A DNA stretch of 64,000 nucleotides, taken from Escherichia phage 235Ecol030PP. Under the pieces are notes generated by a model. That model did no database searches. It was not told where the DNA came from and saw only the letters and a program-made list of their open reading frames with translations. Of the stretch, positions 2 to 33,075 are shown one piece after another. The stretch lies in sequence record PP355091.1; one strand, 5' to 3'. Position 1 is the stretch's first letter. Each line of letters begins with the position of its first letter. A program made the translations under genes and the position numbers.

Positions 2-2108
<2,107 letters not shown>

Positions 2109-2136
2109 TATTAAAGCATATTAAAGAGGATTAAAA

Positions 2137-4116
2137 ATGACTTTATTATCTCCGGGCATTGAGCTCAAAGAAACTACGGTTCAAAGCACCGTGGTTAATA
2201 ACTCTACTGGTACAGCAGCTTTGGCCGGTAAATTCCAGTGGGGTCCTGCTTTTCAGATTAAACAGGTTACAAATGAAGTAGATTTAGTTAATACTTTTGG
2301 TCAACCAACCGCTGAAACTGCTGACTATTTTATGTCTGCGATGAATTTCTTGCAGTACGGAAATGACTTACGAGTAGTTCGTGCTGTTGATAGAGATACC
2401 GCTAAAAACTCATCTCCGATTGCCGGTAATATTGAATACACAATTTCTACCCCAGGTAGTAACTACGCAGTTGGAGATAAAATCACGGTCAAATATGTTT
2501 CAGATGCTATTGAAACTGAAGGTAAAATTACTGAAGTAGACGTAGATGGAAAAATTAAGAAAATTAATATTCCTACTGCAAAAATTATCGCTAAAGCTAA
2601 AGAAGTCGGTGAATATCCAGCACTAGGTTCTAACTGGACTGCGGAAATTTCTTCATCTTCCTCTGGTTTAGCTGCAGTAATAACTCTTGGAAAAATTATT
2701 ACTGATTCTGGTATTTTATTAGCTGAAATTGAAAATGCTGAAGCTGCTATGACAGAGGTTGGCTTTCAAGCAAATCTCGAAAAATACGGAATTCCAGGAG
2801 TAGTAGCGCTTTATCCAGGCGAATTAGGCGATAAAATTGAAATTGAAATAGTATCTAAAGCTGACTATGCAAAAGGAGCTTCTGCATTACTCCCAATTTA
2901 TCCAGGTGGTGGTACTCGTGCATCTACTGCCAAAGCAGTGTTTGGATATGGACCACAAACTGATTCACAGTACGCTATTATAGTTCGTCGCAATGATGCT
3001 ATTGTTCAAAGTGTTGTTCTTTCAACTAAGCGTGGTGAAAAAGATATTTACGATAGTAACATCTATATCGATGACTTTTTCGCAAAAGGTGGTTCAGAAT
3101 ATATTTTTGCAACCGCACAAAACTGGCCAGAAGGCTTCTCTGGAATTTTAACTCTGTCTGGTGGATTATCATCAAATGCTGAAGTAACAGCAGGAGATTT
3201 GATGGAAGCTTGGGACTTCTTTGCTGACCGTGAATCCGTTGATGTTCAACTGTTTATTGCGGGTTCTTGTGCCGGTGAATCTTTAGAAACAGCATCTACT
3301 GTCCAAAAACACGTCGTTTCAATTGGGGATGCTCGCCAAGATTGCTTAGTATTGTGCTCACCACCGCGTGAAACTGTAGTTGGAATTCCTGTAACCCGTG
3401 CTGTTGATAACTTAGTCAATTGGAGAACTGCGGCAGGTTCATACACTGATAATAACTTTAATATCAGTTCAACCTATGCAGCAATTGATGGTAACTACAA
3501 GTATCAGTATGACAAATATAATGATGTGAATCGTTGGGTTCCATTAGCAGCTGATATTGCTGGTTTATGCGCAAGAACTGATAACGTATCTCAGACTTGG
3601 ATGTCTCCAGCTGGTTATAATCGTGGTCAGATTCTTAACGTTATTAAACTTGCTATTGAAACTCGCCAGGCTCAGCGCGACCGTTTATACCAAGAAGCTA
3701 TCAACCCGGTAACCGGTACAGGTGGTGATGGTTACGTATTGTATGGTGATAAAACAGCTACTTCTGTTCCTTCTCCATTTGATCGTATTAACGTTCGTCG
3801 TCTGTTTAATATGTTGAAAACGAATATCGGACGTAGTTCAAAATATCGTTTGTTCGAATTAAACAACGCGTTTACTCGTTCATCATTCCGCACAGAAACT
3901 GCCCAGTACTTACAGGGAATTAAAGCTCTCGGTGGAATTTATGAATATCGTGTAGTTTGCGATACAACAAATAATACTCCGTCAGTAATTGATAGAAATG
4001 AGTTTGTTGCAACATTCTACATCCAACCGGCTCGCAGTATAAATTATATCCAACTTAATTTCGTCGCAACGGCTACTGGTGCAGATTTCGATGAGTTAAC
4101 TGGTCTTGCTGGTTAA
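2137..4116 (+). CDS. 18: contractile tail sheath protein
   Basis: 659 aa as T4 gp18; AGAGGA SD; TATAAATA late promoter upstream. Confidence 0.96.
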   Translation: MTLLSPGIELKETTVQSTVVNNSTGTAALAGKFQWGPAFQIKQVTNEVDLVNTFGQPTAETADYFMSAMNFLQYGNDLRVVRAVDRDTAKNSSPIAGNIEYTISTPGSNYAVGDKITVKYVSDAIETEGKITEVDVDGKIKKINIPTAKIIAKAKEVGEYPALGSNWTAEISSSSSGLAAVITLGKIITDSGILLAEIENAEAAMTEVGFQANLEKYGIPGVVALYPGELGDKIEIEIVSKADYAKGASALLPIYPGGGTRASTAKAVFGYGPQTDSQYAIIVRRNDAIVQSVVLSTKRGEKDIYDSNIYIDDFFAKGGSEYIFATAQNWPEGFSGILTLSGGLSSNAEVTAGDLMEAWDFFADRESVDVQLFIAGSCAGESLETASTVQKHVVSIGDARQDCLVLCSPPRETVVGIPVTRAVDNLVNWRTAAGSYTDNNFNISSTYAAIDGNYKYQYDKYNDVNRWVPLAADIAGLCARTDNVSQTWMSPAGYNRGQILNVIKLAIETRQAQRDRLYQEAINPVTGTGGDGYVLYGDKTATSVPSPFDRINVRRLFNMLKTNIGRSSKYRLFELNNAFTRSSFRTETAQYLQGIKALGGIYEYRVVCDTTNNTPSVIDRNEFVATFYIQPARSINYIQLNFVATATGADFDELTGLAG

Positions 4117-4132
4117 TACGGTGCATTCTAAA

Positions 4133-4150
4133 GGCCTGTTTCGGCAGGCC
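4133..4150 (+). other. stem-loop after gene 18 (GGCCUG / CAGGCC)
   Basis: Perfect 6-bp palindrome; no U-tract. Confidence 0.5.
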
Positions 4151-4151
4151 A

Positions 4152-4159
4152 TATAAATA
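4152..4159 (+). promoter_or_regulatory. late promoter TATAAATA upstream of gene 19 (distal)
   Basis: Exact TATAAATA. Confidence 0.6.
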
Positions 4160-4210
4160 CACTATATCCTTAATTCTTTAATTCTATATGCCCTAGGTTA
4201 AACATAGGGA

Positions 4211-4218
4211 TATAAATA
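4211..4218 (+). promoter_or_regulatory. late promoter TATAAATA upstream of gene 19 (proximal)
   Basis: Exact TATAAATA 15 nt before ATG; leader would be very short. Confidence 0.5.
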
Positions 4219-4232
4219 CTACAGAGGCTAAT

Positions 4233-4724
4233 ATGTTTGTAGATGATGTAACACGAGCGTTTGAATCTGGTGATTTTGCTCGACCTAACTTATTCCAAGT
4301 AGAAATTTCTTATCTTGGACAAAATTTTACGTTTCAATGTAAAGCCACTGCTTTACCAGCTGGTATTGTAGAAAAAATTCCAGTCGGATTTATGAACCGT
4401 AAAATTAACGTAGCAGGCGATCGTACATTCGATGACTGGACTGTTACAGTAATGAACGATGAGGCACATGATGCTCGCCAGAAGTTCGTTGATTGGCAAA
4501 GCATTGCTGCGGGACAAGGAAACGAAATTACTGGTGGAAAACCTGCAGAGTATAAAAAGAGCGCTATCGTTCGTCAATATGCTCGTGACGCTAAAACAGT
4601 AACAAAAGAAATTGAAATTAAAGGTCTGTGGCCTACTAACGTGGGTGAACTTCAATTAGATTGGGATTCAAACAATGAAATCCAAACCTTTGAAGTAACT
4701 CTTGCTCTCGATTATTGGGAATAA
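4233..4724 (+). CDS. 19: tail tube protein
   Basis: 163 aa as T4 gp19; follows sheath gene; late promoters upstream. Confidence 0.94.
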   Translation: MFVDDVTRAFESGDFARPNLFQVEISYLGQNFTFQCKATALPAGIVEKIPVGFMNRKINVAGDRTFDDWTVTVMNDEAHDARQKFVDWQSIAAGQGNEITGGKPAEYKKSAIVRQYARDAKTVTKEIEIKGLWPTNVGELQLDWDSNNEIQTFEVTLALDYWE

Positions 4725-4729
4725 AATGA

Positions 4730-6381
<1,652 letters not shown>

Positions 6382-6382
<1 letters not shown>

Positions 6383-6627
6383 TGGAAGGTTTAATTGAAG
6401 CTATTAAATCAAACGACCTCGTAGCCGCTCGTAAATTATTTGCTGAAGCCATGGCTGCAAGAACGATTGATTTAATTAAAGAAGAAAAAATCGCTATCGC
6501 TCGTAATTTCTTAATCGAAGGTGAAGAACCTGAAGACGAGGATGAAGATGAAGATGATGACGAAGATAGCGATGATAAAGACGACAAAAAAGACAAAGAC
6601 TCTGACGAAGACGAGGATGATGAATAA
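6382..6627 (+). CDS. 67: prohead core protein with acidic C-terminal tail
   Basis: 81 aa, [13 protein letters not shown]..., poly-Asp/Glu tail; ATGA overlap with gene 20 stop. Confidence 0.85.
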
Positions 6628-10114: not shown

Positions 10115-10128
10115 TCTTTGACGATTTA

Positions 10129-10146
10129 AGGGACCTTCGGGTCCCT
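10129..10146 (+). terminator. intrinsic terminator after gene 23 (UUCG tetraloop, U-rich tail)
   Basis: AGGGACC TTCG GGTCCCT then TTAGTTGTTTTT. Confidence 0.7.
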
Positions 10147-10162
10147 TTAGTTGTTTTTATGG

Positions 10163-13005: not shown

Positions 13006-13073
13006 GTTATCGAGTTGGTGCCATTATATACATCATTTTCTGATTGTGTTTTGTGTGCTTTCAAAATGAAGAA

Positions 13074-13089
13074 AGGGGCCGAAGCCCCT
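13074..13089 (-). terminator. terminator after hoc (UUCG loop on minus strand)
   Basis: Minus strand AGGGGC UUCG GCCCCU then UUUCUUCAUUUU. Confidence 0.6.
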
Positions 13090-13094
13090 TATGA

Positions 13095-15253: not shown

Positions 15254-16765
15254 ATGACTGACATTAAAGTACATTTTTATGATTTTAGTCACGTGAGAAT
15301 TGATTGTGAAGAAAGTACATTTCATGAACTCCGTGATTTCTTTAGCTTTGAAGCTGATGGGTATCGTTTTAATCCGAAGTACAGATATGGCCACTGGGAT
15401 GGACGAATCCGTCTTTTAGATTATAATCGTCTTCTTCCATTCGGCTTAGTCGGGCAAATTAAAAAGTTCTGTGATAACTTTGGCTATAAAGCCTGGATTG
15501 ACCCACAAATTAATGAAAAAGAAGAATTATCAAGAAAAGATTTTGATGAATGGCTTTCTAAATTAGAAATCTATTCAGGAAATAAAAGAATTGAACCACA
15601 CTGGTATCAAAAAGATGCAGTGTTCGAAGGATTAGTTAATCGTCGTAGAATTCTTAATCTTCCAACATCTGCAGGTAAATCTTTAATTCAAGCTTTGCTT
15701 GCGCGATATTATTTGGAAAATTATGAAGGTAAAATTCTTATCATTGTTCCAACAACTGCTCTGACAACTCAGATGGCTGATGACTTCGTCGACTATCGTC
15801 TATTCAGTCATGCAATGATAAAGAAAATTGGTGGCGGAGCATCAAAAGATGATAAATATAAAAATGATGCACCAGTCGTTGTTGGTACATGGCAAACTGT
15901 AGTTAAACAACCGAAAGAATGGTTCTCACAGTTTGGAATGATGATGAATGATGAATGCCATCTTGCTACAGGAAAAAGTATTTCATCCATCATATCAGGA
16001 TTAAATAACTGCATGTTTAAATTTGGTCTATCAGGTTCATTACGTGATGGCAAAGCCAATATCATGCAGTACGTTGGAATGTTTGGTGAAATATTTAAGC
16101 CAGTAACGACTTCTAAATTAATGGAAGATGGACAAGTAACTGAGTTAAAAATTAATAGTATTTTTCTTCGCTATCCCGATGAGTTCACTACTAAATTAAA
16201 GGGAAAAACTTATCAAGAAGAAATAAAAATTATTACTGGGCTCAGTAAAAGAAATAAATGGATCGCTAAATTAGCTATTAAGCTTGCACAAAAAGATGAA
16301 AACGCTTTTGTCATGTTTAAACATGTATCGCATGGTAAAGCTATTTTCGATTTAATTAAAAATGAATACGATAAAGTTTATTACGTATCAGGGGAAGTTG
16401 ATACCGAAACCCGCAACGTAATGAAAACCTTAGCTGAAAATGGTAAAGGAATAATTATAGTAGCTAGTTATGGTGTATTTTCTACTGGTATTTCAGTTAA
16501 AAATCTGCATCATGTTGTTTTAGCGCACGGCGTTAAATCAAAAATCATTGTATTACAAACAATCGGTCGTGTATTACGTAAGCATGGTTCTAAAACAGTC
16601 GCAACAGTCTGGGACCTCATAGATGACGCGGGCGTCAAGCCAAAATCTGCTAATACGAAAAAGAAATATGTTCATTTGAACTATCTTTTAAAACACGGCA
16701 TTGATCGTATTCAGCGTTACGCAGATGAAAAATTTAATTACGTAATGAAAACAGTCAATTTATAA
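15254..16765 (+). CDS. uvsW: UvsW DNA/RNA helicase
   Basis: 503 aa, begins MTDIKVHFYDFSHVRIDCEE, helicase motifs (PTSAGKS, DECH). Confidence 0.95.
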   Translation: MTDIKVHFYDFSHVRIDCEESTFHELRDFFSFEADGYRFNPKYRYGHWDGRIRLLDYNRLLPFGLVGQIKKFCDNFGYKAWIDPQINEKEELSRKDFDEWLSKLEIYSGNKRIEPHWYQKDAVFEGLVNRRRILNLPTSAGKSLIQALLARYYLENYEGKILIIVPTTALTTQMADDFVDYRLFSHAMIKKIGGGASKDDKYKNDAPVVVGTWQTVVKQPKEWFSQFGMMMNDECHLATGKSISSIISGLNNCMFKFGLSGSLRDGKANIMQYVGMFGEIFKPVTTSKLMEDGQVTELKINSIFLRYPDEFTTKLKGKTYQEEIKIITGLSKRNKWIAKLAIKLAQKDENAFVMFKHVSHGKAIFDLIKNEYDKVYYVSGEVDTETRNVMKTLAENGKGIIIVASYGVFSTGISVKNLHHVVLAHGVKSKIIVLQTIGRVLRKHGSKTVATVWDLIDDAGVKPKSANTKKKYVHLNYLLKHGIDRIQRYADEKFNYVMKTVNL

Positions 16766-16779
16766 GGGCTTCGGCCCTT
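16764..16779 (+). other. UUCG hairpin between uvsW and uvsW.1
   Basis: AAGGGC TTCG GCCCTT overlapping the SD of uvsW.1. Confidence 0.5.
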
Positions 16780-24424: not shown

Positions 24425-25389
24425 TGTATTCTTTAGAGGAATTTAATAATCAAGCAATAAACGCAGATTTCCAACGTAATAATATGTTTAGCTGCGTTTT
24501 TGCAACAACTCCATCAACTAAAAGCTCTTCGTTGATAAGTTCAATTAGCAACTTTTCTTATAATAACTTGGGCCTAAATTCAAATTGGTTAGGATTAACT
24601 CAAGGTGATATTAATCAGGGAATTACCACGCTAATTACAGCTGGCACACAAAAACTGATAAGAAAATCAAGGGTTAGTAAATATCTTATTGGTGCCATGA
24701 GTCAACGCACAGTTCAAAGTTTATTAGGCTCATTTACAGTTGGTACATATTTAATTGACTTCTTTAACATGGCATATAACTCATCTGGATTGATGATATA
24801 CTCTGTAAAAATGCCAGAGAATAGATTATCCTATGAAACTGACTGGAACTATAATTCTCCTAATATTCGTATAACTGGGAGAGAATTAGACCCTTTGGTT
24901 ATTTCATTTAGAATGGATTCAGAAGCTTGTAACTATCGTGCAATGCAAGACTGGGTTAACGCTGTTCAAGACCCAGTAACTGGACTGCGTGCTTTGCCAC
25001 AAGATGTCGAGGCAGATATTCAGGTTAATCTTCATTCTCGTAATGGATTGCCTCATACTGCGGTGATGTTCACCGGATGCATTCCAATATCAGTGAGCGC
25101 TCCTGAGCTATCATATGATGGAGATAACCAAATAACTACATTTGATGTTACTTTTGCGTACAGAGTGATGCAGGCTGGAGCAGTTGATAGGCAAGCTGCG
25201 CTTGAATGGCTTGAATCTGCTGCTATAAATGGTATTCAAAGCGTTCTCGGAAATAGTGGAGGTGTTACTGGACTATCTAATTCGCTTTCACGACTCAGTA
25301 GATTAGGTGGAACTGCAGGAAGCATTTCAAACATTAATACTATGACAGGAATTGTCAATTCGCAAAGTAAAATATTAGGAGCAATATAA
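24424..25389 (+). CDS. 54: baseplate tail tube initiator
   Basis: 321 aa; ATGA overlap with gene 48. Confidence 0.9.
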   Translation: MYSLEEFNNQAINADFQRNNMFSCVFATTPSTKSSSLISSISNFSYNNLGLNSNWLGLTQGDINQGITTLITAGTQKLIRKSRVSKYLIGAMSQRTVQSLLGSFTVGTYLIDFFNMAYNSSGLMIYSVKMPENRLSYETDWNYNSPNIRITGRELDPLVISFRMDSEACNYRAMQDWVNAVQDPVTGLRALPQDVEADIQVNLHSRNGLPHTAVMFTGCIPISVSAPELSYDGDNQITTFDVTFAYRVMQAGAVDRQAALEWLESAAINGIQSVLGNSGGVTGLSNSLSRLSRLGGTAGSISNINTMTGIVNSQSKILGAI

Positions 25390-25392
25390 CAA

Positions 25393-25412
25393 TGGGGACC
25401 TTTCGGTCCCCA
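25393..25412. terminator. bidirectional terminator between gene 54 (+) and alt.-3-like ORF (-)
   Basis: TGGGGACC TTTC GGTCCCCA then TATTTTTATTT. Confidence 0.65.
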
Positions 25413-25417
25413 TATTT

Positions 25418-25708
25418 TTATTTACGGAATGAAATGAAAGCAGCAACTGAAGCAACTAAACTGTCTTCAATATAAACTTCAATTTTTACCGGAGCTTCTG
25501 ACTCAAATTTACCTGTTACTACACCCTGAAAAATACTTTCAGTCTGTTCTGGCTTTGAAAAATTTTCAGAAGGAAAAATTCCAAACTTTTTATCTGTTCC
25601 GAAAATTTTGATAAATTCATCATAAACCGCTTCGTTAAAAGCATTATCAGCAGGAATAACGCCTTCAACTACAAGTTCTTGACCTAAAAAGCGTAAAGAA
25701 GATTTCAT
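25418..25708 (-). CDS. hypothetical protein (position of T4 alt.-3)
   Basis: 96-aa ORF, GAGGA SD, directly downstream of a conserved early promoter. Confidence 0.6.
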   Translation of the reverse strand: MKSSLRFLGQELVVEGVIPADNAFNEAVYDEFIKIFGTDKKFGIFPSENFSKPEQTESIFQGVVTGKFESEAPVKIEVYIEDSLVASVAAFISFRK

Positions 25709-25715
25709 TTTGTGT

Positions 25716-25769
25716 TCCTCATGTTATGTCAGTAAGACTACTATAACACAACACGAGGGACTTGTAAAC
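25716..25769 (-). repeat. 54-bp early promoter/leader repeat, copy 1
   Basis: Differs at 2 of 54 positions from the copy at 39555..39608. Confidence 0.85.
25740..25769 (-). promoter_or_regulatory. early promoter: -35 GTTTAC, 18-nt spacer, extended -10 TGtTATAGT
   Basis: Minus strand GTTTACAAGTCCCTCGTGTTGTGTTATAGT, then GAGGA SD and alt.-3-like ORF. Confidence 0.65.
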
Positions 25770-25904
25770 TACATTTTGAACTTTTTAGTACGCGTAATAG
25801 GCATGCGTCGATTTTATACTGTTTCATTGTTTGAAGAGCAGTATCAAAACAGCATTAATGACACCAATTGGATTTCCACCCAAGTTTTTAAGCTTAACTA
25901 ATGA

Positions 25905-26128
25905 TAGTTTCTCATTAACACCTATCATTACGATATGCATCATTTTGTCGCCTGGTTTAACGTTTTATCTGTATCACCGCCAGAGGTGTATGTACAAAAT
26001 CTAAATCCAGGAAGCACGCTTTCTTCGCCGGCTTGAATAGCAAAAATTTGAGGTATTTTATGCTTAGGATTTAAGTTAACAACCGGCGCCGAAGCGCCGT
26101 CAAATAATTATGTAATAAGTTCCATGAT
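25905..26128 (-). pseudogene. decayed duplicate of the 5' end of alt (region of T4 alt.-1/alt.-2)
   Basis: Minus strand reads ATG GAA CTT ATT ACA TAA ..., parallel to alt start MELITELFDE...NLNPKKKIPQIF, with a stop at codon 6 and later frameshift; begins 3 nt after the alt stop. Confidence 0.6.
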
Positions 26129-28177
26129 TTATCCTTGAACGAACTTGTAAGGCATGTTTGCAATATCTATGCAAGACGCAATAATTCCAAGAGATGATTC
26201 TACTTTCTGTTTAACATTTGATGAAACAAATGATGCAAAGTCAACTCTATCTTCTATATCACCTGTCATTGTAACCAATTCACCAGTTTCCATTAAATGG
26301 TCTCCGTCATAGATTACCGATTCGGTGAGTTCTTCTGTGGTCATAACTTCAGCTTGAATAAGCTTGTTGTTAGTTCTAACTGTTCCATCGTTGTAAGATG
26401 CATCGGTTATTTTATTAACTTTGACCATTAATCCACGTGGCAAAATGACTTCCATTTCATTTGAAGGCGCTAAACTTCCACCGGGTAAAACAACATTGAC
26501 CTTATCAGCCCCAGTAATAACCCATCCAATTCCAACTAAATTATCGCTAGAATTTACTAGTCCTTCATCAGTTTTATCAATAGAAACACTTAGACGCTTT
26601 TCGTCTGGTAAAACACCTATAGATGAATCAGTCATCCAAGTACCAAAAATATTTGGATATAATGATGTTGACACAAAGTTTCTAAAATAAAAAACTCGAT
26701 TTTTTACCATTGCTTCATATATTGAAGGTAACATTCGTTGTGAACGATACAAAGTAATACCTTTTGGTAATCGTTCACCATTTTTAAAGGCTGAATCTAA
26801 ATTATCAATGGCTTGTTCTATTTCAGGTGCTGTTAAAATACTTGTACGCTCATCTGGATTATATAATCCCAAAAGAGCATTATTTATGTCTACATATCCT
26901 GAACCTACATATTCACGAATTCCGCGTTTTTGCGCTGGCGTGTATTTAGATGAATCTTTATTTTCGACTATAGGATGTAATGACCATCCAGCGGTAAGAG
27001 CATATCCACGTAATTCTCTTCGAATAATCTTTGTTTTTATTGCATTCCAAGAATTTTGTACTAACTCATTTGCAGCATCTTGGTTTAAATGCGAATGTCT
27101 GTTAATATTTCTTTCAAACCAGGCACCTTTATATTTTTCTAAAGTATCATCGACGATAGAAGCAATAGTTTCTAAAGTTTTTATTGAAGTAATAGATTCT
27201 TTTCGTAATTTTTCTAAAGCTTTATTTTTTATTTCTGCATTAATAATGGATTCTTTATCTTCAGGAATTATAGAAGCTTCTCTGAATGCCATCCCAGCTG
27301 TAACACTGCTAAGAGCATTCTCTAGTGCAAATCCTGAAGTAGAAATTACCGTTAATTCATTAGAATCAGAAATTAAAGGCGCGTCCGCTGGTTTATTTAA
27401 TTCTGCCGCTGAAGCCTCAAATTTTTGAAACATCGGTGTTTCAAATCTAGAAGATTCCAATGACTGACTTTGTGCAATTGCTCTACGGGAAATTTTAACT
27501 TTAACGATTACAGCTTGGTCAGAACGTTTATCATTTTCTTGCGCAATAGATGCTGCAATTGCCTCATTTTTAGTTACTTGGGCTCCAGTATCTTTATTGA
27601 TATAAACATCACCGACCTTCGATTCAACTTTAGTAAAGAGCTCGGTACTAATTTCCGGAACTCCTGGAATGTCTTCTAGTGATACATTTTTGCGATGTAT
27701 AAGAATATATGCATACTTTTTATCATAATCCCAGAGTTCCTTAAGAAGGACGTATCTGCCACCTGAACGACTACGGATAAGTCTATCAGCAATAACTTGA
27801 ATTTGTCGAGCTTGACCAGCGGTTTTAGACTTAAGAATACGAAGCATACAGGCATCAATTTTATACTGACGCATCGTTTGCATTGCAACAGTAAAAACTG
27901 AATTGATATAATTAATTGGGCTTGGACCAAGACCTTTCAATTTAGCAATTGAACCTTTAGCGGTTAATGTAAAAGGAACAATATGCATCATTTTATCGCC
28001 CATCTTTAAATCACGATTAGTATCACCTCCAGATGTATAGGTACATAAACGAAAGCCTGGTTGTTCAATTGCGTCATCAACATGAACTGAAAAAATTTGC
28101 GGTATTTTCTTCTTTGGATTTAAGTTTGTAATCGGAAGAGTAGTATCTTCGTCAAATAATTCTGTAATTAGTTCCAT
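26129..28177 (-). CDS. alt: ADP-ribosyltransferase Alt (virion-packaged)
   Basis: 682 aa from second ATG (GAGGA SD spacing); TATTTATA on plus = late promoter on minus at 28203-28210. Confidence 0.9.
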   Translation of the reverse strand: MELITELFDEDTTLPITNLNPKKKIPQIFSVHVDDAIEQPGFRLCTYTSGGDTNRDLKMGDKMMHIVPFTLTAKGSIAKLKGLGPSPINYINSVFTVAMQTMRQYKIDACMLRILKSKTAGQARQIQVIADRLIRSRSGGRYVLLKELWDYDKKYAYILIHRKNVSLEDIPGVPEISTELFTKVESKVGDVYINKDTGAQVTKNEAIAASIAQENDKRSDQAVIVKVKISRRAIAQSQSLESSRFETPMFQKFEASAAELNKPADAPLISDSNELTVISTSGFALENALSSVTAGMAFREASIIPEDKESIINAEIKNKALEKLRKESITSIKTLETIASIVDDTLEKYKGAWFERNINRHSHLNQDAANELVQNSWNAIKTKIIRRELRGYALTAGWSLHPIVENKDSSKYTPAQKRGIREYVGSGYVDINNALLGLYNPDERTSILTAPEIEQAIDNLDSAFKNGERLPKGITLYRSQRMLPSIYEAMVKNRVFYFRNFVSTSLYPNIFGTWMTDSSIGVLPDEKRLSVSIDKTDEGLVNSSDNLVGIGWVITGADKVNVVLPGGSLAPSNEMEVILPRGLMVKVNKITDASYNDGTVRTNNKLIQAEVMTTEELTESVIYDGDHLMETGELVTMTGDIEDRVDFASFVSSNVKQKVESSLGIIASCIDIANMPYKFVQG

Positions 28178-28202
28178 CATATCCTCTCTAGTGTGTTTAT
28201 TC

Positions 28203-28210
28203 TATTTATA
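28203..28210 (-). promoter_or_regulatory. late promoter (minus strand) for alt
   Basis: Plus strand TATTTATA about 25 nt upstream of alt start. Confidence 0.6.
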
Positions 28211-28215
28211 AAATT

Positions 28216-28233
28216 AAAGGCCCGAAGGCCTTT
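28216..28233 (-). terminator. terminator after ligase-distal ORF (UUCG loop on minus strand)
   Basis: Minus strand AAAGGCC UUCG GGCCUUU then AAUUUUAU. Confidence 0.55.
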
Positions 28234-28420
28234 AGTAATCTAGCGGTAAGAGAGTACGATATATTTCAAACTTTGGTCCTTTTTCATAGGCATCAAATGT
28301 TTCTGTGAATTTATTATAAGCGTATGCATCTACAAATTCGAGAATGACTTGTGATACAGAAGTAGAAACATCTCCACCTTCTTTTTGAGCAATGACAATT
28401 GTTTCTAAGTAAGCTTTCAT
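28232..28420 (-). CDS. hypothetical 62-aa protein
   Basis: ATG overlaps ligase stop (ATGA); hairpin at its 3' end. Confidence 0.5.
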   Translation of the reverse strand: MKAYLETIVIAQKEGGDVSTSVSQVILEFVDAYAYNKFTETFDAYEKGPKFEIYRTLLPLDY

Positions 28421-29880
28421 AGACCAGTTACCTCATGAAAATCACCAAATACATCTTCGAATGTATTAGCTTTAGTTTTATCTTCGCGTAAACGAATCGC
28501 AATCGGAAGAAATAATTTAACGTAATCAGTGCGGCCATCAGATTTTAACCAACCGTTGCATTCGCACTCTAGAATTTTTCCAATATAATAATTTTGGTTT
28601 TCCATAATGCGAGTACGGTCAAGTTCATGCGATTTTACACCGGCTTTATCTTTTAAGCCTGAACCAGCATTTACCTTAATTTTTCCACACTCTGACTCAA
28701 GAATAAATCCACCTGCTTTAGTAGGGTCTTTACGGTGAGGATAAATTCCTACAATTTTTAAATCAACATCAATTACTTCTTTAAATTTATAGAGATTTTT
28801 TGAACGAGCATTTTCCCATAATCCATCGATATTTTTGAGAATAATACCTTCAAGACCTTGGTCAATATACTTTTTATAAATTACCTTAGCTTCATCTAGG
28901 TTATTTACTACCTGGTTTTCAATTAAAATTACTTTATCATAGCCTGATGTCATTTGTTCTAGTTTAGAAAAACGTACATCATACTTTAAACGAAATGCAG
29001 GAAGACCATATATTTCTACTAATGGAACATAATCCCAGACCTGAAACTTCATGCATTGTGCTTCTTTTTCAGAAATGGTTCCCTTTAAAGATTTATTAGC
29101 GATTCCATTAGAAGTAGTACGTGATTCAGCTACTTCGGCGAATTCTTTGGCTTTACTAATTTCAGGATAAGCATCAAAAAGAAAATCTAGGCCTTCTGGC
29201 TCCTTTTTAACTTGCTCATGGTATACCAATTCGCCATCAATTAACACGCCTTCTGGATGAATCTGGCGGGCTTCAGTGGTCATTTTGATTAATTCTTCCT
29301 TAAGAAGATCTAATCCTAGATATTCATTACCGGCTCGTGATAAAAGACGAACATCATCTAATTCATCACCTCTGACTTCGGCAAAGCACCGAGCCCCATC
29401 AGCTTTTAACTGAGCAAAGGCTGGAAATTTGATATTCTTATTAATGCCTTTTTCATCATAAGAACTTGCAAGCATTTGAGGTTGTTCAGGAATTAAACCT
29501 GGCCAAACTTTGTTTGCAATAGATACTGAAGCACCACATTCAAGGTCTCGCATCATCACTCGACGCAAAACTTCAACATCATCTTTTTTACCGTCAGTAA
29601 TATATCCAGTTAATTCCTCAATTGCCACATTTCCAGTCAATTTCCGAGTAGCTAATGTGAATTCAATGAAGTCAAGCATATCGGTAAGAGTCAACATTCC
29701 AAAACTCTGGGTAGCAATACCAGGTTTAGGCCATTTCTTGATATAATACTGCAACCCACGAGAATAAGTCAGACGATATACTCGTTTAAGCAATTCATTA
29801 TCTTTATTCTTTTCAAGAATTGCTTGCTTCTGCTTAGTTGAACCAATAGATGCTATTTCGTTCAGAATTTTAAGAATCAT
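28417..29880 (-). CDS. 30: ATP-dependent DNA ligase
   Basis: 487 aa as T4 ligase; adenylation motif KADGAR. Confidence 0.95.
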   Translation of the reverse strand: MILKILNEIASIGSTKQKQAILEKNKDNELLKRVYRLTYSRGLQYYIKKWPKPGIATQSFGMLTLTDMLDFIEFTLATRKLTGNVAIEELTGYITDGKKDDVEVLRRVMMRDLECGASVSIANKVWPGLIPEQPQMLASSYDEKGINKNIKFPAFAQLKADGARCFAEVRGDELDDVRLLSRAGNEYLGLDLLKEELIKMTTEARQIHPEGVLIDGELVYHEQVKKEPEGLDFLFDAYPEISKAKEFAEVAESRTTSNGIANKSLKGTISEKEAQCMKFQVWDYVPLVEIYGLPAFRLKYDVRFSKLEQMTSGYDKVILIENQVVNNLDEAKVIYKKYIDQGLEGIILKNIDGLWENARSKNLYKFKEVIDVDLKIVGIYPHRKDPTKAGGFILESECGKIKVNAGSGLKDKAGVKSHELDRTRIMENQNYYIGKILECECNGWLKSDGRTDYVKLFLPIAIRLREDKTKANTFEDVFGDFHEVTGL

Positions 29881-32136: not shown

Positions 32137-32152
32137 GGGGGCCGAAGCCCCT
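32137..32152 (-). other. intercistronic UUCG hairpin
   Basis: Minus strand GGGGC UUCG GCCCC just upstream of the SD of ORF 31833..32120. Confidence 0.5.
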
Positions 32153-33022: not shown

Positions 33023-33051
33023 AACTTTATGCAATCTTTGGAAAATAAAAA

Positions 33052-33071
33052 AGGACTCCCGAAGGAGTCCT
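33052..33071 (-). terminator. terminator after the small basic ORF (UUCG loop, U-tract)
   Basis: Minus strand AGGACUCC UUCG GGAGUCCU then UUUUUUAUUUU. Confidence 0.65.
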
Positions 33072-33075
33072 TAAC

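Follow-up and report, generated by a model that had tools for sequence, protein, structure and literature searches.

The alt.-1/alt.-2 locus of a T4-type phage: a stump very probably left by deletion within a full-length second Alt paralogue

The T4 records NC_000866 and AF158101 carry two small open reading frames, alt.-1 (61 aa) and alt.-2 (67 aa), at 123065..123450, next to the gene for the ADP-ribosyltransferase Alt. A note in the T4 record explains them as an old duplication of the first part of alt which has since acquired a stop codon, and they are likewise listed as a paralogous duplication of alt by Nolan 2006 (PMC1524935). The same locus is present in the sequence analysed here, a stretch of 64,000 nucleotides of record PP355091.1 (Escherichia phage 235Ecol030PP, a T4-type phage of the Tequatrovirus group), hereafter referred to as the window. 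The question raised by this locus is what the alt-like sequence was before it decayed, by which event it was formed, and whether the elements embedded in it, including a prominent RNA hairpin, retain a function in the absence of an intact reading frame.

The genes of the region are located on the minus strand in the order DNA ligase (28417..29880), alt.1 (28232..28420), alt (26129..28180), the alt-like sequence (hereafter uniformly called the stump) and alt.-3 (25418..25708), and the alt/alt.-3 block is convergent with gp54 and gp48 of the plus strand. The ORF list and a match to the Pfam family PF03496 (E 8e-35) identify alt as an intact Alt ADP-ribosyltransferase gene of 683 aa, counted from the first ATG. 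Its start is a double one (ATGATG at 28175..28180), T4 alt being annotated as a 2,049-nt CDS (682 codons), and the true start is presumably at the second ATG (28177), as this one matches the MELITE of T4 and RB18. A scan placed the upstream limit of the alt transcription unit at 28195..28234 (minus strand), where the stop of alt.1 overlaps with a UUCG terminator hairpin (28234..28215), after which comes the late-promoter motif TATAAATA (28210..28203); the Lutter record has an annotated terminator and promoter at the colinear positions. At the other end, alt.-3 is an intact gene of 96 aa according to the ORF list and the T4 annotation. Between it and the convergent gp54 lies a 9-bp palindromic hairpin, ATGGGGACC TTTC GGTCCCCAT (25392..25413), which scored as terminator-like on both strands, and e11/2 has terminators annotated on both strands at the colinear site. 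Two plus-strand ORFs spanning the stump (63 and 57 aa, TTG starts) were set aside as mechanical ORFs, with no support for either.

The stop codon of alt (TAA, 26131..26129) is followed by the spacer ATC (26128..26126) and, at 26125, by an alt-like ATG from which the stump reads ATG GAA CTT ATT ACA TAA TTA TTT GAC. In a local nucleotide alignment the stump is 76% identical to the 5' end of alt in 208 aligned columns, and a TBLASTN search of the stretch with Alt gave a match of E 8e-32 covering Alt residues 1-118 in three segments that lie in three reading frames. The similarity to the 5' end of alt is thus beyond chance, and the observations on which the sequence-only reading of this DNA was built, namely the alt-like start 3 nt past the alt stop, the TAA at codon 6 and the palindrome at 26099..26084, are all present in the sequence. 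That reading had put the length of the copy at about 220 nt (to 25905), which is too short: the homology to alt goes on to about 25780, that is for roughly 346 nt. On the basis of TBLASTN, of a nucleotide identity of about 95-97% to the first ~353 nt of intact paralogues and of colinearity with T4, the stretch 25780..26125 (minus strand) is assigned as the 5' part of a second Alt paralogue (codons 1 to ~118), equivalent to T4 alt.-1 plus alt.-2 and in the state of a pseudogene.

Several lesions interrupt the stump. The nonsense codon TAA at codon 6 (26108..26110, minus strand) stands where T4, e11/2, N2 and every intact paralogue have GAA, and it is common to the window, JEP6, Lutter, AV119, FL12, F1 and HY03 (7 of the 12 stumps). 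Alignment further reveals a run of four A at 25963..25966 (minus strand), five in the intact paralogues, which causes the -1 frameshift responsible for the split between alt.-1 and alt.-2 in T4, and a run of four T at 25846..25849 (minus strand), five in T4 phage and in all 21 other aligned sequences, which causes an extra -1 frameshift. The single later frameshift proposed earlier is thus present but is one of several, the A-run, the T-run and an out-of-frame junction at 25788..25780 each disturbing the frame. As judged from the ORF list and the T4 annotation, the equivalent of alt.-2 is cut to an ORF of 39 aa (25824..25943, minus strand) from the 67 aa of T4. Both ORFs of T4 (61 and 67 aa) are lost in the window, the former being halted at codon 6 and the latter shortened to 39 aa, and no protein of any length is expected from its stump.

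The origin of the stump becomes apparent from its relatives. A sensitive BLASTN search with the 359-nt stump as the query retrieved 549 phage records. Most of these align to bases 1-349 of the stump at 93-97%, and the aligned region belongs to a CDS whose annotation is that of a full-length Alt-like ADP-ribosyltransferase. In RB18, pSs-1 and T2 (accessions YP_010067078, YP_009111014 and XUQ82853, respectively) a gene of 685 aa begins 3 nt past alt and is followed by alt.-3. Its product shares 41% identity with Alt from end to end and carries the ART catalytic domain (PF03496) at residues 416-620, the domain of Alt being at 375-615; this domain is absent from the stump, which holds residues 1 to ~118 only. 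The body of the paralogue, which is missing from the window, was found in 407 phage records, near full length in 402 of them, and the contiguous deleted (T4-type) arrangement in about 90 records. Two Alt paralogues in Tequatroviruses are also mentioned elsewhere (PMC13600099). No more diverged copies of the paralogue 5' end were detected by TBLASTN between ~90% and ~63% identity, the next matches being Alt itself, and a search of IMG/VR for the same 5' end yielded 8 loci only. The proposal that the stump is a decayed tandem duplicate of the 5' end of alt is therefore only partly borne out: the sequence is indeed a decayed alt-like copy in tandem with alt, but it is the stump of a separate paralogue of 685 aa and 41% identity to Alt.

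Another configuration of the locus was observed in ECML-134, which has one alt-type gene (3084..5144 in the numbering of the compared ECML-134 stretch). This gene is chimeric, its first ~430 nt being 98-100% identical to RB18 alt and the remainder 93-100% identical (per 100-nt window) to the second paralogue of RB18, which suggests an unequal crossover of tandem copies with loss of the catalytic body of Alt and of the hairpin, and thus a third configuration of the locus.

Comparison with an intact relative defines the event that separates the two states. Global alignment of the window to RB18 gave two blocks with a gap of 1,699 nt between them, and a 9-bp direct repeat, CTAAAAAGT, occurs at both breakpoints. 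The 5' breakpoint in RB18 reads ...CGCGTA followed by CTAAAGAGT, the latter being CTAAAAAGT in pSs-1 and T2, where the repeat is perfect; the 3' breakpoint reads ...GGAATGT followed by CTAAAAAGTTCAAAATGTAG, which represents the last codons of the paralogue and its stop. One copy of the repeat survives in the window, out of frame, as the junction at 25780..25788 (minus strand), with 1,699 bp gone. The adjoining nucleotides 25769..25779 (minus strand), as identified by alignment, are the 3' terminus of the paralogue including its original TAG stop (25771..25769), again out of frame, and together with the repeat they form a tail of ~20 nt. All 12 deleted-type sequences have one and the same junction. 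Since the stump thus retains both ends of a whole gene, the event is fixed as a deletion and not a partial duplication, and because the deletion is out of frame (3n+1), alt.-2 of T4 stays open beyond the old stop and extends as far as the -10 region of the promoter of alt.-3. This promoter, an early-type one (25740..25768, minus strand; TTTACA, 17-nt spacer, TG-TATAGT) detected by a consensus scan with 10/12 matches, has a colinear counterpart annotated as a promoter in the Lutter record, and its sequence is also found 3' of the intact paralogue in RB18. It sits in the original spacer between the paralogue and alt.-3, just beyond the old paralogue stop, and belongs to alt.-3 and not to the stump.

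To follow the decay after the deletion, 22 sequences comprising 10 intact paralogues and 12 stumps were aligned. Over the first 351 nt, all 10 intact paralogues are free of lesions. Among the stumps, N2 shows no lesion beyond the deletion and retains a single ORF of 128 aa; the nonsense codon is the sole further lesion in AV119 and FL12; the A5 to A4 frameshift is the sole one in T4, e11/2 and two IMG/VR viral contigs (IMGVR_c and IMGVR_d); JEP6 and Lutter combine the two; and to these two lesions F1 adds a 9-nt deletion, HY03 a 7-nt duplication and the window the T5 to T4 change. All four combinations of the nonsense codon and the A-run shift thus occur among N2, AV119, FL12, T4 and the window with one shared junction, a four-gamete pattern which implies either that T-even genomes have recombined within ~150 nt or that the mutations have recurred.

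Substitutions were scored in the ancestral reading frame. Variants confined to the stumps are 2 synonymous to 9 nonsynonymous, against 34 to 3 for the rest (Fisher p = 6e-6), which is the signature of a pseudogene and shows selection to be relaxed relative to the intact orthologues. Other marks of a pseudogene were also found, in that the gene is intact in relatives at the same position, while the catalytic domain has been lost and a nonsense codon and frameshifts have appeared. Taken on its sequence, the stretch is therefore very probably a pseudogene, namely what one deletion and subsequent decay have left of the 5' part of a second Alt paralogue that once had its full length. The 128-aa stump ORF of N2 leaves room for a residual role, which may have been short-lived, straight after the deletion. 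Public annotation of the stump is inconsistent: in HY03 and others it appears as a 'hypothetical protein', as an 'RNA polymerase-ADP-ribosyltransferase' for a 67-aa fragment, or under no feature.

Other explanations of the stump may be weighed against these data. A partial tandem duplication, in which only the first part of alt was copied and then decayed, was favoured by the sequence-only reading, is stated in the T4 record note and is compatible with the listing in Nolan 2006, and it would account for the resemblance of the stump to the 5' end of alt only. Yet the identity of the stump to the 5' end of the full-length paralogue (93-97%) far exceeds that to alt (only ~76%), the last ~20 nt and the stop of the paralogue are retained with the breakpoints in a 9-bp direct repeat, and the paralogue, being 41% identical to Alt along its whole length, cannot have grown from a 350-nt stub; this origin is considered extremely improbable. 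Scarcely more credible is the view that the stump still encodes functional small proteins Alt.-1 and Alt.-2, for example N-terminal Alt-like peptides targeted to the capsid. Open frames of 61 and 67 aa in T4 and of 128 aa in N2, together with a Shine-Dalgarno sequence (AAGGA) and an ATG that are intact in all sequences, speak for such a function, but the first frame of the window ends at codon 6 and its second is frameshifted to 39 aa, the nonsense codon is found in 7 of 12 stumps with 9-nt and 7-nt indels in others, and the stump-specific substitutions are predominantly nonsynonymous (2:9).

The T-run lesion of the window might also be a homopolymer sequencing error, being a single-base change in a T5 run for which the window stands alone among the 22 aligned sequences. 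Against this, the separately deposited PD112 matches the stump at 99.7% over the same 359-nt length and has an annotated CDS of 120 nt labelled Alt.-2, equal in length to the shortened ORF of the window; going by the equal match and CDS lengths, and not by a base-by-base inspection of the PD112 sequence, the T-run shift is probably common to both, and an error is thought unlikely. The assignment of the stump as a pseudogene by deletion holds with or without the T-run lesion, because the deletion, the nonsense codon and the A-run shift remain.

The most conspicuous element within the stump is a hairpin at 26084..26099 (minus strand), located 29 nt past the alt stop and recognised from the sequence and by folding, with a perfect 6-bp all-G/C stem, a UUCG loop and C(UUCG)G closure (CGGCGC-TTCG-GCGCCG). 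In its context the hairpin is predicted with 6 G-C pairs in both the minimum-free-energy and the centroid structures. It does stand in place of the Alt residues EDTTLPIT, as had been noted, but the suggestion that a terminator-like element had invaded dead sequence does not hold, since all 10 intact paralogues carry the hairpin in frame, where GAC GGC GCT TCG GCG CCG encodes D-G-A-S-A-P; the hairpin is therefore older than the deletion and the decay and not a product of the latter. Its context in the window, beyond the codon-6 stop, is effectively non-coding, while in most phages it lies inside a translated ORF (in frame in RB18 and T2). It falls in an N-terminal patch between '(L/V)FD' and 'NL(N/K/T)P', the sole patch varying in length and sequence among all the Alt homologues examined, and could therefore be tolerated at little cost to the protein. 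The spacer between alt and the paralogue is only 3 nt. At the position in alt that corresponds to the hairpin there is a weak inverted repeat of 5 bp (GAAGA/TCTTC), which is not stable, its 111-nt context folding at -6.9 kcal/mol with z = +0.17, and which was judged to be a chance occurrence.

Hairpins of the C(UUCG)G class, counted from a stem length of 5 bp upwards, show an enrichment of about 60-fold in the window (7 observed against 0.11 expected from dinucleotide shuffles). The other six, at 10128..10147(+), 16764..16779(+), 13073..13090(-), 28215..28234(-), 32138..32151(-) and 33051..33072(-), all lie 0-13 nt past a same-strand stop codon. In the stump hairpin no U-tract follows the stem, which is succeeded by GTTGTTAA (the tail being GTTGTTAACT), and it was not flagged by the terminator scan, which needs at least 5 T in 8 nt; a U-tract is also missing at two of the other six (16764 and 32138). 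Judged by these features, the stem-loop would be stable, but the absence of a U-tract weighs against an intrinsic terminator, a role that is at most putative. A scan of 25300..28500 against Rfam gave nothing near any family threshold, and a literature search brought up no mapping of T4 transcript 3' ends and nothing of use on UUCG hairpins or Term-seq. The hairpin is invariant in 22 of 22 sequences, but this conservation is uninformative because the flanks are nearly invariant too (9 variable columns in alignment columns 13-110, or about 1.5 predicted per 16 nt), and a covariation test has no power because the divergence is under 7%.

Whether this hairpin has a function of its own is the more delicate question. 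It may be an accident of coding Gly-Ala-Ser-Ala-Pro in a hypervariable linker of the paralogue: G-A-x-A-P is palindromic at the nucleotide level, with 4 of 6 pairs fixed by first and second codon positions, the probability of a 6-bp stem given the peptide is 0.12, a U-tract and covariation are wanting, and the Dhakavirus paralogues do without such a hairpin. When the UUCG loop is included, however, the probability given the peptide DGASAP and the codon usage of this phage falls to 0.003, wherever the peptide leaves a choice a rare G/C-ending codon is used, the hairpin class is strongly enriched with all its other members at gene ends on the coding strand, and the position is only 29 nt past the alt stop. 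Although an accident is a distinct possibility, if short of an even one, several of these results, together with the spacer hairpin between tandem alt genes in 44RR, point to selection on the hairpin at the nucleotide level. With no more than moderate confidence, and by analogy with the other UUCG hairpins of the genome, it may be regarded as a gene-end hairpin of the late alt transcript that would stabilise its 3' end or serve as a weak terminator or attenuator. It is more tentatively proposed that the hairpin could be a functional RNA element selected inside the second alt gene, in a hypervariable linker in which any peptide would be tolerated, that it would serve there as a marker or stabiliser of the alt mRNA 3' end and govern the ratio of Alt to its paralogue, and that it outlived its host gene. 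If that is true, alt.-1/alt.-2 persists in T4 partly as the carrier of an alt 3'-end element and not for a protein.

The preferred account of the locus, deletion within a second gene, may accordingly be outlined as a series of putative steps. The ancestor would have had a full-length second Alt-type ADP-ribosyltransferase gene in tandem directly after alt. A single deletion of 1,699 bp between 9-bp repeats, probably by a slipped-strand or microhomology-mediated route, would have removed paralogue codons ~119 to ~679, including the whole ART domain, and fused the first ~353 nt out of frame to the last ~20 nt. Once the gene was dead, later lesions would have piled up in combinations differing from phage to phage, whereas two cis elements older than the deletion, the C(UUCG)G hairpin and the early promoter of alt.-3, are probably still at work.

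The locus and its description as a duplication of alt are already known and are ordinary; the refinement is that the stump is the deletion remnant of a full-length paralogue and that the hairpin is older than the death of the gene. The significance lies mainly in annotation, as the 'hypothetical proteins' alt.-1 and alt.-2 in hundreds of T4-like records would be fragments of a pseudogene, and the duplication note of the T4 record should read as a deletion remnant of a second Alt paralogue. Laboratory T4 represents the minority state, most Tequatroviruses, T2 included, carrying two full-length Alt-type ADP-ribosyltransferases, and this matters for studies of phage ADP-ribosylation in which T4 is taken as representative. 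The locus also offers a natural series for the fate of tandem paralogues, namely a pair that is still intact, a microhomology deletion followed by decay in steps, and a chimera from unequal crossover, a series that is unlikely to surprise a specialist.

The closest known system is alt.-1/alt.-2 of T4. As had been supposed from the sequence, the two share one locus: the comparison with the region downstream of T4 alt is colinear, and the 359-nt stump is 97.8% identical to the Tequatrovirus T4 record KJ477686. The two have the same alt/alt.-3 interval, junction, A-run frameshift and hairpin and are separated by few substitutions and one 1-nt gap, and by position, identity and colinearity the stretch is best regarded as the orthologue of T4 alt.-1/alt.-2. 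The window differs in the additional TAA at codon 6 and the T-run shift, which ruin both T4 ORFs. The intact paralogue of other Tequatroviruses is orthologous to the window in its first ~353 nt and last ~20 nt (about 93-97% nucleotide identity), and shares the position 3 nt after alt and the embedded hairpin, but it encodes 685 aa with an ART domain, whereas the window is without codons ~119-679.

The hairpin resembles the C(UUCG)G gene-end hairpins of the T4 type, reportedly described by Tuerk et al. in 1988, in its C-G pair closing a UUCG loop, its G/C-rich stem, its presence on the transcribed strand and its location shortly past a stop codon. It differs from them in lying 29 nt past the stop (0-13 nt in the others) without a U-tract, and in being situated within the CDS of the next gene in most relatives instead of in a spacer.

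Tandem alt arrays are found in other Straboviridae as well, in UGJNEcP3 with three copies (910..6393), in JS98 with alta and altb (910..5124) and in 44RR (2971..6384), all in the numbering of the compared stretches. Dhakavirus has 2-3 tandem alt genes followed by alt.-3, and Biquartavirus has tandem alt genes also, so that the tandem arrangement must be old, alt in more than one copy being widespread among the Straboviridae. The arrays of JS98, UGJNEcP3 and 44RR share with the present locus the head-to-tail arrangement of Alt paralogues with spacers of 0-30 nt, but their copies are intact and lack the embedded UUCG hairpin, none of the tandem alt genes of Dhakavirus or Biquartavirus having a comparable hairpin within its coding sequence. 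In 44RR, an ordinary G/C hairpin lies instead in the 29-nt spacer that separates two tandem alt genes.
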